This document shows, in pieces, positions 29,636 through 30,471 of a stretch of DNA of 32,856 nucleotides. Where the stretch lies: IMG/VR virus record IMGVR_UViG_2526164692_000012; one strand, written 5' to 3'. Source of the DNA: a virus. Lineage: Duplodnaviria > Heunggongvirae > Uroviricota > Caudoviricetes. The notes beneath the pieces are model-generated. The model was not told the origin of the DNA. It searched no databases and was given only the letters and a program-made list of their open reading frames with translations. The position numbers and the translations under genes were made by a program. Each line of letters begins with the position of its first letter. Within the stretch, counting starts at the first letter, position 1.

Positions 29636-29845
29636 ATGGCTATCGCTGCAAGTTACACCATGCATCTCTATTGTGATTGTCGCCAGTGTACGGAAGGTGT
29701 ATATCCAGTGCCAGACTTCGGTGAGTATATCGGTACGTCATGGTCTGGTTGTGCAAAAGAGGCCCGTAAAGACGGGTGGCGAATAAGCAAAGACAAAACA
29801 CGTACTTTTGCGCCCGGGCATAAAGTTTTGAGGATTAACACATGA
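29636..29845 (+). CDS. Small Cys-containing hypothetical protein, 69 aa
   Basis: Strong SD (AAGGAGAG) before the ATG; CxC...C pattern near the N-terminus. Confidence 0.45.
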   Translation: MAIAASYTMHLYCDCRQCTEGVYPVPDFGEYIGTSWSGCAKEARKDGWRISKDKTRTFAPGHKVLRINT

Positions 29846-30471
29846 CCACTATTACCAAAGAACGTATTGAATTGTTCATTAAAAATCCGCTTGAAAACGG
29901 GCTTACTCGTGGCGAACAAATGGAACTGGCACGAATTGCACTGGCATCACTGGAACGCGAACAGATTCGCCACGAGCATGCCAAATGGTCTGACTCCACA
30001 TTTGGCTGCGTTGGCCCCATTGGTCCACTGAAACACCTCTCAAAAGAGGCACTGGAAGCCGCAGCCGAACCAGACGATCTTAGCGAGTGGGCTGATATGC
30101 AGTTCCTGTTGTGGGATGCACAGCGCCGTGCTGGTATCAGTGATGCTGAAATTACCGCTGCTATGGAAAATAAATTGAAGATCAACATGGAACGCCAGTG
30201 GCCTGAACCAAAAGATGGTGAGCCTCGCTTGCACATTAAAGAACCCGGCAACTCTCCGGTAACTCCGGATGGCTGGATAAGCTGTAGTGAGCGAATGCCG
30301 GATACCAAAACAGCCGTTCTTGTTGCCGTGGAGTTTGACAGGAAAGGTGACTGGCGAATGAAATGGGCGACTTACATCCCGGGTCATCCTGACGCTAATG
30401 ATGGGTGGATAATTCCTGGTGCGTCGTGGAAACCGTCACACTGGATGCCGCTACCAGAGCCTCCACTTTGA
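29842..30471 (+). CDS. Fusion protein: MazG-like nucleotide pyrophosphohydrolase-type domain (DUF550-like) plus DUF551-like C-terminal domain, 209 aa
   Basis: ATGA overlap with the upstream gene; N-terminal half resembles MazG/DUF550 prophage proteins and the C-terminal half (WISCSERMPD...SHWMPLPEPP) resembles DUF551, as recalled. Confidence 0.5.
   Translation: MTTITKERIELFIKNPLENGLTRGEQMELARIALASLEREQIRHEHAKWSDSTFGCVGPIGPLKHLSKEALEAAAEPDDLSEWADMQFLLWDAQRRAGISDAEITAAMENKLKINMERQWPEPKDGEPRLHIKEPGNSPVTPDGWISCSERMPDTKTAVLVAVEFDRKGDWRMKWATYIPGHPDANDGWIIPGASWKPSHWMPLPEPPL

Follow-up and report, generated by a model that had tools for sequence, protein, structure and literature searches.

A shortened ortholog of phage P22 eaA combines a predicted MazZ-type pyrophosphohydrolase domain with DUF551 in a defective prophage of Escherichia coli O104:H4

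The window analysed here is the whole 32,856-nucleotide stretch of caudoviricete DNA recorded as IMGVR_UViG_2526164692_000012, and the host locus is argW of E. coli O104:H4, where a P22-like prophage, now defective, is integrated. Towards its right end lies an open reading frame of 209 codons on the plus strand, running intact from an ATG at 29842 to a stop codon ending at 30471, as the initial annotation had placed it. The gene, its parts and its surroundings are as follows.

25380..26077 (approximate), minus strand: IS1 element, located from the annotation of O104:H4 2011C-3493 and comparison with strain 55989
29636..29845, plus strand: upstream 69-aa gene (phrog_926, WP_000951713.1), whose stop overlaps the start of the 209-aa ORF
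29830..29845, plus strand: translation start signals (GAGGA at 29830-29834, ATG at 29842), read off the sequence
29842..30471, plus strand: whole gene, stop codon counted in, for a 209-aa EaA-type protein made of head, DUF550/MazZ-like enzyme domain, linker and DUF551
29842..29955, plus strand: N-terminal head, aa 1-38, MTTITKERIELFIKNPLENGLTRGEQMELARIALASLE, predicted helical and common to many unrelated ea-region proteins
29965..30252, plus strand: PF04447 (DUF550), MazZ-type all-alpha NTP pyrophosphohydrolase domain, aa 42-137, assigned from Pfam and MazZ homology
30046..30117, plus strand: codons for E69, E72, E82 and D85 (predicted metal ligands) and for D92, assigned from invariant alignment columns and MazZ residue roles
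30247..30270, plus strand: linker or recombination joint GNSPVTPD, aa 136-143, conserved
30271..30465, plus strand: PF04448 (DUF551), aa 144-208, with conserved edges and a variable, cassette-like core
30271-30300, plus strand: leading edge of DUF551, GWISCSERMP, conserved
30439-30465, plus strand: trailing edge of DUF551, HWMPLPEPP, conserved
30568..30747, plus strand: eaG, downstream, coding for a 59-aa zinc-ribbon protein 95% identical to P22 EaG
30879..31079, plus strand: torI/excisionase gene at the prophage end, adjoining cscB

The gene order is common with that of phage P22 (abc2...ead...eaA-eaG-xis), the near identity of the two eaG products fixing the synteny. BLASTP against P22 EaA gave E=9e-71 for the head plus DUF550 and E=8e-15 for DUF551, and by similarity and position the gene is identified as a shortened ortholog of P22 eaA. 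The P22 protein (317 aa, annotated as 'EaA protein', DUF550+DUF551) has homologues in Lederbergvirus and in lambdoid prophages. Both proteins share the head (MTTITKERIELF...ARIALASL), the DUF550 core (~80% amino acid identity), the linker and the DUF551 edges, as well as a place between the ead/Ea22-like gene and eaG-xis. However, two internal modules of P22 EaA are missing from the 209-aa protein, one of ~41 aa following the head and one of ~60 aa separating DUF550 from DUF551, and its DUF551 core is a different one. The same EaA layout is present in a viable phage, Kapi1, which has the same three-part architecture and a DUF550 segment 100% identical over the 94 aa queried. The synteny with P22 agrees with the earlier placement of the gene in an early-left operon, and the overlapping small accessory genes described there are indeed found, as the neighboring genes lie close together or overlap and correspond to PHROG families over their full length. 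The upstream 69-aa gene was considered as P22 eaI, an identification rejected because it has no similarity to P22 EaI. In the literature found, no function is reported for P22 EaA or its relatives, and no measured activity for the enterobacterial EaA/DUF550 proteins.

The ATG of the 209-aa ORF shares bases with the TGA stop of the 69-aa ORF before it (ATGA, 29842-29845) and is preceded at a distance of 7 nt by GAGGA, an arrangement that suggests translational coupling to the upstream gene. RefSeq breaks the ORF in two, with a 'pseudogene' at 29842-29967, its first 42 codons being marked by PGAP as an incomplete gene, and a separate CDS that starts at an ATT codon (30019) in strain 55989 and at a CTG codon (29941) in strain 2011C-3493. 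We judge this split to be an annotation artefact, because the exact 209-aa protein has been deposited as a single protein on 187 contigs, because P22 EaA and Kapi1_005 begin with the same MTTITKER head, and because a start at I60 would delete helix 1 of the enzyme domain; a reading of the ORF as a pseudogene fragment followed by a truncated gene was rejected on the same three grounds. The RefSeq annotation is thus inconsistent, truncates the enzyme domain and could be corrected.

The initial annotation had described a MazG-like domain fused to a DUF551-like domain and proposed a Pfam check of both halves. This gave two matches, PF04447 followed by PF04448, both well above the Pfam cut-offs, and the fusion stands, with the enzyme half being of the MazZ type. 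The PF04447 match (dATP-dGTP_PPHyd, formerly DUF550) takes in aa 42-137 and profile positions 1-96 of 97, scoring 143 bits (curated cut-off 23; E=3.5e-42). That to PF04448 (DUF551) takes in aa 144-208 and profile positions 1-67 of 68, scoring 75.6 bits (cut-off 22; E=5.5e-21). As sequence matches both are far beyond chance. No canonical MazG (PF03819) or MazG-like Pfam model matched the 209-aa protein at E<=1, and MazZ of cyanophage S-2L itself has only weak, sub-threshold matches to the canonical MazG models. No match to NCBIfam models was obtained for the protein.

S-2L MazZ (PDB 7ODY) belongs to the same Pfam family, with 44.4 bits against PF04447 (cut-off 23). A single-sequence search against MazZ was not significant (E=0.41), nor was the match to MazZ in a search of the PDB with a shallow full-length profile (E=1.5); significance required a more diverse, DUF550-only profile. 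When this was built from six diverse sequences from which MazZ was excluded, avoiding circularity, 7ODY was the sole significant PDB match (E=5.9e-6), and hhalign aligned 88 of the 105 MazZ residues with 96.4% probability (E=1.3e-9). A full-length AF2 model from a 42-sequence alignment had a pLDDT of 47 and consisted of helices only, too poor for a structure or fold search, so it is homology at the sequence and profile level that supports the assignment to the MazG fold. On this basis the enzyme core (aa ~39-137) is placed with the MazZ-type proteins of the all-alpha MazG/HisE NTP-pyrophosphohydrolase superfamily.

S-2L MazZ has a MazG-HisE fold and converts (d)GTP to (d)GMP, and its crystal structure defines the roles of the metal ligands and of D60, which contacts the guanine N2 (PMC8342488). 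The MazZ metal ligands E35/E38/E50/D53 correspond to E69/E72/E82/D85 of the 209-aa protein and D60 corresponds to D92, whereas W15 and L57 map to W49 and L89, and the residues supplied by the second chain (K76/N80/R83/W85/H95) to K111/N115/R118/W120/H131. All the mapped metal-ligand and pocket residues are invariant in an alignment of 42 close relatives. A second alignment, with enterobacterial, Klebsiella, Mycobacterium, Pseudomonas, Acinetobacter and cyanophage members, retains the four acidic ligands and D92 throughout, and the C-terminal R-x-H-I strand of MazZ is also kept in the 209-aa protein. Two pocket positions differ, I56 being replaced by F88, next to the base and sugar, and E34 by K68, so substrate preference could differ from that of MazZ; E34 also varies among the homologues of MazZ. 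The two proteins have the metal ligands and most pocket residues in common, but identity is only about 28-31%, and MazZ is a stand-alone protein of 105 aa encoded between purZ and datZ in the Z-genome cluster, without the head and the DUF551 tail present here.

The family name of PF04447 comes from another relative, the dATP/dGTP pyrophosphohydrolase of Acinetobacter phage SH-Ab 15497, whose PF04447 domain has the same acidic motif but matches the profile weakly (33 bits), and which carries an N-terminal PF18909 (DUF5664) domain that is absent from the 209-aa protein. The family took its name from an activity determined with this two-domain DUF5664+DUF550 protein, and a DUF5664 protein by itself hydrolyses dATP, dUTP and dGTP (PMC12884076). 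Since DUF5664 alone acts on dATP, the 'dATP' in the family name may not fit a DUF550-only enzyme; MazZ, which consists of DUF550 alone, cleaves only (d)GTP and not the other deoxynucleotides tested (PMC8342488).

The head shows 92% DNA identity with the first 113 nt of P22 eaA, matches the PHROG N-terminal segments phrog_3323 and phrog_10451, and is found on the proteins P0124, P0128, P0139 and P0153, whose bodies differ; in the AF2 model the region has helices at 6-14 and 23-47 with low confidence. The linker and leading DUF551 edge (gene nt 406-463) are 94.8% identical to P22 eaA and the DNA of the trailing edge 90.9% identical, against only 70.6% for the enzyme-domain DNA, so that at the DNA level the head and linker have diverged less than the enzyme. 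The DNA of the DUF551 core has no match to P22 or Kapi1, in contrast to its edges, which are 88-95% identical. Moreover, an NSPV(T/I)PDG motif flanks inserted modules in the relatives P0002, P0011 and P0038. By these comparisons the protein is modular, with a head, an enzyme core, a conserved linker and DUF551, and the head and the GNSPVTPD linker behave like in-frame recombination joints for module swaps between phages.

In DUF551, W145, C148, M152, P153, W201, L204 and P205 are invariant, and the core is unalignable across relatives even though the edges do not vary: 17 core cassettes with less than 60% identity are set between identical edges. The AF2 model of this domain is beta-rich (pLDDT 70.5), the nearest predicted structures being other DUF551 proteins, and a DUF551 profile found no match among PDB sequences. 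As modelled, DUF551 is a small, mostly beta, autonomous domain. An identical 72-aa DUF551 trails dozens of different N-terminal bodies, and the domain also occurs as stand-alone proteins of 65-67 aa; the cassette present here, under Ea22-like and stand-alone DUF551 genes, was found in 811 of 5426 E. coli genomes. Given so many partner bodies, its tie to nucleotide hydrolysis may be incidental.

Such fusions are not unusual, being the standard architecture of a very large, named family. DUF550+DUF551 fusions occur in >8000 protein clusters, the layout with head, DUF550 and DUF551 being the commonest (a 546-member cluster), and roughly a tenth of complete E. coli genomes carry the enzyme segment. 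Some proteins of the same 90% cluster are named 'HNH endonuclease', and these were discarded as unrelated sequences reflecting a clustering artefact and not a domain variant. The gene is real, already catalogued (the 187-contig deposit is named 'DUF550 domain-containing protein'), and ordinary, known at the family level. As the protein, both domains and the family name are already in public databases, nothing changes for it as a sequence feature.

The domain identities, MazZ homology, conservation of catalytic residues, orthology and synteny with P22 eaA, mosaic structure and prevalence observed here lead us to favor, with moderate confidence, a short member of the EaA family that would act as a non-structural accessory protein of the PL region, built from four exchangeable pieces and combining a MazZ-type (d)GTP enzyme with DUF551. 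The enzyme core would oligomerise as MazZ does, with active sites shared by two chains, and E69/E72/E82/D85 would hold two or three Mg2+ or Mn2+ ions. It would hydrolyse a purine nucleoside triphosphate, leaving the monophosphate, and its likeliest substrate is (d)GTP, giving (d)GMP, in line with a presumed guanine preference. DUF551 would be a portable binding or targeting module, tethering its body to a partner. MazZ-type enzymes have a single established biological role, the supply of dGMP for synthesis of 2-aminoadenine, the Z-base. As purZ and datZ (adenylosuccinate-synthetase-like and HD dATPase genes) are absent from the annotated gene lists of the whole prophage, the 209-aa protein is not part of a Z-base pathway. 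Candidate purposes are the trimming of the (d)GTP pool, or, at an early stage of infection or induction, the clearing of a guanine-based nucleotide.

The initial annotation had also proposed an anti-defence or host-takeover role. Nothing found here supports it, and it is possible but speculative; neither the 209-aa protein nor its neighbors matched any PADLOC-DB model. A precedent for the idea is Atd1, which is, as here, a phage-encoded member of the MazG superfamily lying among accessory genes. It is reported to hydrolyse ppGpp and to protect against TIR-STING toxicity (bioRxiv 10.1101/2022.06.09.495361), and it would be the model for a protein whose true substrate is (p)ppGpp/pppGpp, lower alarmone levels either blunting a stringent-response-linked abortive infection or shifting the lysis-lysogeny decision. 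The guanine-N2-binding aspartate is kept as D92 and alarmones are guanine nucleotides, and the gene is surrounded by early accessory genes, its neighbor being Ea22-like; Ea22 is described as pro-lysogenic (PMC10834534). However, Atd1 resembles canonical MazG, the 209-aa protein has no canonical MazG match at E<=1 and hence is no close relative of Atd1, the single MazG-like protein of phages described as anti-defence, to which such a match would have linked it. In addition, the nucleotide in MazZ is almost wholly buried (PMC8342488) and the pocket may lack space for a 3'-diphosphate, the PADLOC result is negative, and for DUF550 proteins, unlike Atd1, no alarmone activity or anti-defence phenotype is known. 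An alarmone hydrolase seems unlikely.

Many enzymes of the MazG superfamily are sanitising NTP pyrophosphatases, and the protein might likewise be a house-cleaning or counter-defence nucleotidase that destroys non-canonical or defence-made purine nucleotides (oxidised or deaminated dNTPs, chain-terminating GTP analogues) before the phage polymerase uses them. This would fit the intact set of catalytic residues. In two unrelated phages, moreover, a DUF550 gene adjoins a DUF4406 gene, annotated as TIR2-superfamily in one of the two phage records; DUF4406 is presumably related to nucleoside deoxyribosyltransferases, and the pairing would then hint at a nucleotide catabolic pair. A further parallel comes from prophage CPS-53 (KplE1) of strain K-12, which occupies the same integration site (argW...torI) and has, in the same slot just upstream of torI, the 5'-deoxynucleotidase gene yfdR (YfbR-like HD domain deoxynucleotide hydrolase) overlapping the DUF551 gene yfdS, an arrangement that recalls the hydrolase-DUF551 fusion. 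CPS-53 differs in that the hydrolase is of the HD and not the MazG superfamily and in that there are two genes and no fusion, and YfdS has a marginal DUF551 match (22.2 bits) with no significant similarity to the DUF551 of the 209-aa protein. YfdR is reported to bind DnaA, and a yfdS mutant to be peroxide-sensitive (PMC4776307). We regard a sanitising or counter-defence nucleotidase as rather improbable, since the one close relative that has been characterised, MazZ, hydrolyses normal (d)GTP, the analysis points to no defence system that would be countered, and the support from gene neighborhoods amounts to two cases and one analogy.

The state of the prophage bears on whether the gene is used in this host. 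The IS1 element sits immediately upstream of cIII-kil, and at this break the prophage lacks the lysis, Q, nin, replication, immunity and PL-N regions; identity of this DNA to strain 55989 starts only at 26572. The repressor, cro and replication genes present in the 55989 copy are absent here next to IS1, so the native early-left promoter region is missing. An IS1-linked deletion has thus removed the region that would carry the early-left promoter PL, and because of this the gene is probably silent or weakly expressed in this O104:H4 prophage; a promoter scan found no strong sigma-70 site just upstream of it. It nevertheless seems improbable that the ORF is an inert relic, that is, an unexpressed recombinant fragment in a decaying prophage as the RefSeq 'pseudogene' and truncated CDS would have it: to the PGAP flag, the ATT/CTG starts, the lost regions and the negative promoter scan are opposed an intact frame that is identical in 55989, whose copy keeps its immunity and replication genes, a single product on 187 contigs, a layout that is both the commonest one and that of a viable phage, and a start with a good ribosome binding site and probable coupling to the upstream gene, and silence in one host does not make a phage gene non-functional.

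Temperate phages of the P22 type have ordinary DNA and yet retain a MazZ-type enzyme whose catalytic apparatus appears intact, although the one established use of such enzymes is the making of 2-aminoadenine DNA. One conjecture, which we consider a long shot, is that EaA-type proteins are an effector plus an address label, with DUF551 delivering a conserved (d)GTP or guanine-nucleotide pyrophosphohydrolase to different host or defence proteins, and swaps of the core cassette between the invariant in-frame joints retargeting it in an arms race with the host. If this were true, the many other bodies bearing DUF551 would likewise be retargeted, and the HD-type deoxynucleotidase paired with DUF551 in CPS-53 of K-12 would follow the same logic.

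The reading frame at 29842-30471 on the + strand is exactly as the initial annotation had it, an intact ORF of 209 codons in the ORF list. Its ATG overlaps the stop of an upstream 69-aa ORF (ATGA) and follows a GAGGA with 7-nt spacing. The proposed fusion of MazG-like and DUF551-like domains is recovered by Pfam in this single ORF:

aa 42-137, PF04447 (formerly DUF550, now "dATP/dGTP pyrophosphohydrolase"), 143 bits, E=3.5e-42
aa 144-208, PF04448 (DUF551), 75.6 bits, E=5.5e-21

Both matches score well over the curated thresholds, which confirms that they are not due to chance. 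In a PHROGs search, the protein matched families of unknown function only.

A tblastn search of phage genomes with the enzyme segment returned 518 records, including Escherichia phage Kapi1 (100% identity), the "EaA protein" of mEp390 (88%) and "eaA" of P22 and relatives (78-80%). In pairwise alignments with P22 EaA (317 aa), which has two additional internal segments, the head (aa 1-38) plus DUF550 gave E=9e-71 and DUF551 gave E=8e-15. Moreover, the P22 order abc2...eaD(ead)-eaI-eaA-eaG...xis-int agrees with that of the window, and the two EaG proteins are 95% identical. Taken together, these alignments, the matching gene order and the EaG identity indicate that the gene is a short ortholog of P22 eaA. 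Gene 005 of Kapi1, a viable phage, has the same three-part layout, with a different head variant and a different DUF551 core. The exact 209-aa sequence is present in public records as "DUF550 domain-containing protein" (AKE83389.1 and others, 187 contigs), a homology search gave at least 8000 scored clusters, with both Pfam domains in all clusters among the matches listed, and the enzyme segment occurs at the DNA level in 512 of 5426 complete E. coli genomes. It belongs to a family that already has a name, P22 EaA / DUF550-DUF551, and is an ordinary and very common member of it. Proteins labelled "HNH endonuclease" in the same 90% cluster (P0390, P0391 and P0392; 195-202 aa) are unrelated in sequence to the window protein, and their co-membership probably reflects an artefact of clustering in that collection.

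RefSeq annotates this ORF inconsistently, although its sequence is identical in strains 55989 and 2011C-3493. PGAP gives a "pseudogene" at 29842-29967 in both strains, followed by a CDS starting at ATT 30019 in the former and at CTG 29941 in the latter. Both versions truncate or clip the PF04447 domain, and with the ATT start helix 1 of that domain would be lost, W49 with it. Since the head is common to P22 EaA and Kapi1 gene 005, the start is well signalled and other records contain the exact full-length protein, the split into a pseudogene and a shorter CDS is rejected as very probably an annotation artefact.

The enzyme domain was compared with MazZ, the (d)GTP pyrophosphohydrolase of cyanophage S-2L (PDB 7ODY). 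The match was non-significant in a single-sequence search against the PDB (E=0.41), while MazZ itself scores over threshold against PF04447 (44.4 bits). A DUF550 profile built without MazZ from six sequences (window, P22, Klebsiella FZ10, Salmonella STSR3, Mycobacterium Barbarian and Pseudomonas AUS531phi) had 7ODY as its sole significant PDB match (E=5.9e-6), and hhalign aligned DUF550 with MazZ at 96.4% probability (E=1.3e-9, 88 of 105 residues). MazZ is a tetramer of MazG-HisE fold that converts (d)GTP to (d)GMP; E34, E35, E38, E50 and D53 bind three Mn2+ ions, D60 contacts the guanine 2-amino group, and a second chain supplies K76, N80, R83, W85 and R94/H95 (PMC8342488). In the alignment, the metal ligands correspond to K68, E69, E72, E82 and D85, and D60 to D92, with E34, replaced here by K68, being the sole ligand not conserved among MazZ homologues either. 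K76, N80, R83 and W85 correspond to K111, N115, R118 and W120, R94 to R129 or L130, and H95 to H131. The mapped ligand and pocket residues are invariant in 42 close relatives, and the acidic set and D92 in all eight distant sequences. The profile, the hhalign result and this conservation thus point to a MazG-like fold at the level of sequence homology, contrary to the refuting outcome named initially; the full-length AF2 model (pLDDT 47) is too low in confidence to confirm it. Of the functional readings, the one best supported, with moderate confidence in its enzymatic part, makes the protein an active purine-NTP pyrophosphohydrolase of MazZ type, carried on a modular accessory protein in which DUF551 would serve as a portable binding module.

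The conservation of D92 points to (d)GTP as the most likely substrate. The family name derives from a protein of Acinetobacter phage SH-Ab 15497 that combines PF18909 (DUF5664) with a weak PF04447 match (33 bits). A DUF5664 protein is reported to hydrolyse dATP, dUTP and dGTP by itself (PMC12884076), whereas MazZ, with DUF550 only, acts on (d)GTP only (PMC8342488), and the "dATP" of the name may be inapplicable here. MazZ I56 is replaced by F88, which could alter specificity. No purZ or datZ is found in the annotated gene lists of the prophage, placing the protein outside the 2-aminoadenine pathway.

The enzyme core hardly varies among close relatives, whereas DUF551 (window 30271-30465; relatives P0020-P0069) has identical edges (GWISCSERMP ... 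(T/S)HWMPLPEPP) around a core that is unalignable between variants, with at least 17 cassettes below 60% identity. The edges alone show 100% DNA identity in genes that differ otherwise. A search of the full library with the window DUF551 matched 706 representatives, and copies 93-100% identical follow N-terminal bodies of dozens of different kinds (76-418 aa), only a few of which carry a Pfam domain (five Ead/Ea22, and one each of Ral, Metallophos and DUF550). Stand-alone DUF551 proteins of 65-67 aa also exist. At the DNA level, 811 of 5426 E. coli genomes carry the window cassette, which also lies within Ea22-like and stand-alone DUF551 genes; this agrees with PMC10834534, where DUF551 is described as a domain that is portable among Ea22 variants.

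DNA identity to P22 eaA is 92% in the head, 70.6% in the enzyme, 94.8% in the linker (GNSPVTPD, 30247-30270) plus leading DUF551 edge and 90.9% in the trailing edge; against Kapi1 it is 98.4% over nt 82-461 of the gene. The DUF551 core has no DNA match to either. The joints are therefore more conserved than the enzyme, the pattern expected if homologous recombination there swaps modules in frame. Direct repeats of the linker, NSPV(T/I)PDG, bracket inserted modules in the longer EaA relatives P0002, P0011, P0038 and P0075, and a CRAAMLQ...PVSQTYKL motif recurs between modules in many DUF551 proteins; both have the look of intragenic joints at which recombination would keep the frame. An AF2 model of aa 138-209 (139 sequences, pLDDT 70.5) is mainly beta. 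Foldseek found nothing significant for it in the PDB, the hits of a BFVD structure search were all further DUF551 models, belonging to phages with many hosts, and a DUF551 profile search matched no solved structure. A "small beta-barrel binding module" is a lead suggested by this model.

Gene neighbourhoods offer only hints of a rival reading, a house-cleaning or counter-defence nucleotidase:

Mycobacterium phage Barbarian (locus L006), 1085-1776, DUF550-DUF4406 pair
Pseudomonas phage AUS531phi (locus L007), 1312-2279, DUF550-DUF4406 pair
E. coli K-12 CPS-53 (locus L011), 4985-5874, yfdR-yfdS, 10-nt overlap

DUF550 adjoins DUF4406 in two unrelated phages and could form with it a recurrent nucleotide-metabolism pair. 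In AUS531phi, DNA methyltransferases and a Lar-like gene are found near the pair. In CPS-53, at the same argW/torI site, the gene of the 5'-deoxynucleotidase YfdR, a YfbR-like HD protein of the Pfam family shared with Z-phage DatZ, overlaps the DUF551 gene yfdS (PMC4776307), a two-gene parallel to the hydrolase-DUF551 fusion. PADLOC and NCBIfam gave zero matches, and the earlier label of candidate anti-defence factor is speculation, neither supported nor contradicted by these results. Alarmone hydrolysis is a rival by analogy with Atd1, a phage MazG-like enzyme reported to hydrolyse ppGpp and to protect against TIR-STING toxicity (bioRxiv 10.1101/2022.06.09.495361), but Pfam finds no canonical MazG domain in the window protein.

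By the annotation of strain 2011C-3493, a P22-like prophage integrated at the argW tRNA site lies whole within the window. From the left, the order is yfdF-mlaA-yfdC-tRNA-Arg-intS, acyltransferase, tailspike, ant/arc, ejection proteins, capsid, portal, terminase and IS1, then cIII, kil, erf, an anti-RecBCD gene, two DUF genes and an ead/Ea22-like gene, followed by the MazZ-type gene, eaG, torI (excisionase) and chromosomal cscB. The immediate upstream genes are:

29273-29449, + strand, small gene (58 aa)
29446-29634, + strand, small gene (62 aa)
29636-29845, + strand, small gene (69 aa)

They are tightly packed or overlapping, each with an end-to-end PHROG match, in keeping with the overlapping small accessory genes described initially. 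The first two, between the ead/Ea22-like gene and the 69-aa gene, are absent from RefSeq annotation but match phrog_13831 (E=8e-41) and phrog_1380 (E=9e-32) and are probably real phage genes. The ead/Ea22-like protein (28602-29273, + strand, 223 aa) is extended at its C-terminus by a segment that bears a Walker-A-like GFTGCGKS around aa 152-159, and it gives weak sub-threshold matches to APS kinase and AAA_16 (E about 0.03-0.04). Between eaG and torI lies a GC-rich hairpin (30807-30830, both strands, T-runs on each side), at the relative position of the annotated terminator of the antisense aI RNA in P22.

The 2.6 kb around the gene are 100% identical to E. coli 55989 and the O104:H4 outbreak lineage, and the final 12.9 kb to O104:H4-type genomes only. 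The 55989 copy retains ninB, helicase, cII, cro and repressor genes, whereas the window is without the lysis, Q, nin, replication, cro/repressor and PL-N regions; identity to 55989 begins only at 26572, and at about 25380-26572 IS1 abuts a truncated gene followed by cIII-kil. The region expected to carry the early-left promoter has thus been lost beside IS1 in O104:H4: membership of an early-left operon stands by homology, but the head of that operon is missing here. The missing regions make the argW prophage of O104:H4 a defective one, whose early-left genes are without their native promoter region. The rival reading, that the gene is an inert relic, may be true for its expression in O104:H4, but does not hold for the gene family.

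The inconsistent RefSeq annotation and the cassette behaviour of DUF551 are of modest interest, as is the fact that phages with normal DNA keep a MazZ-type enzyme whose catalytic set is apparently intact.
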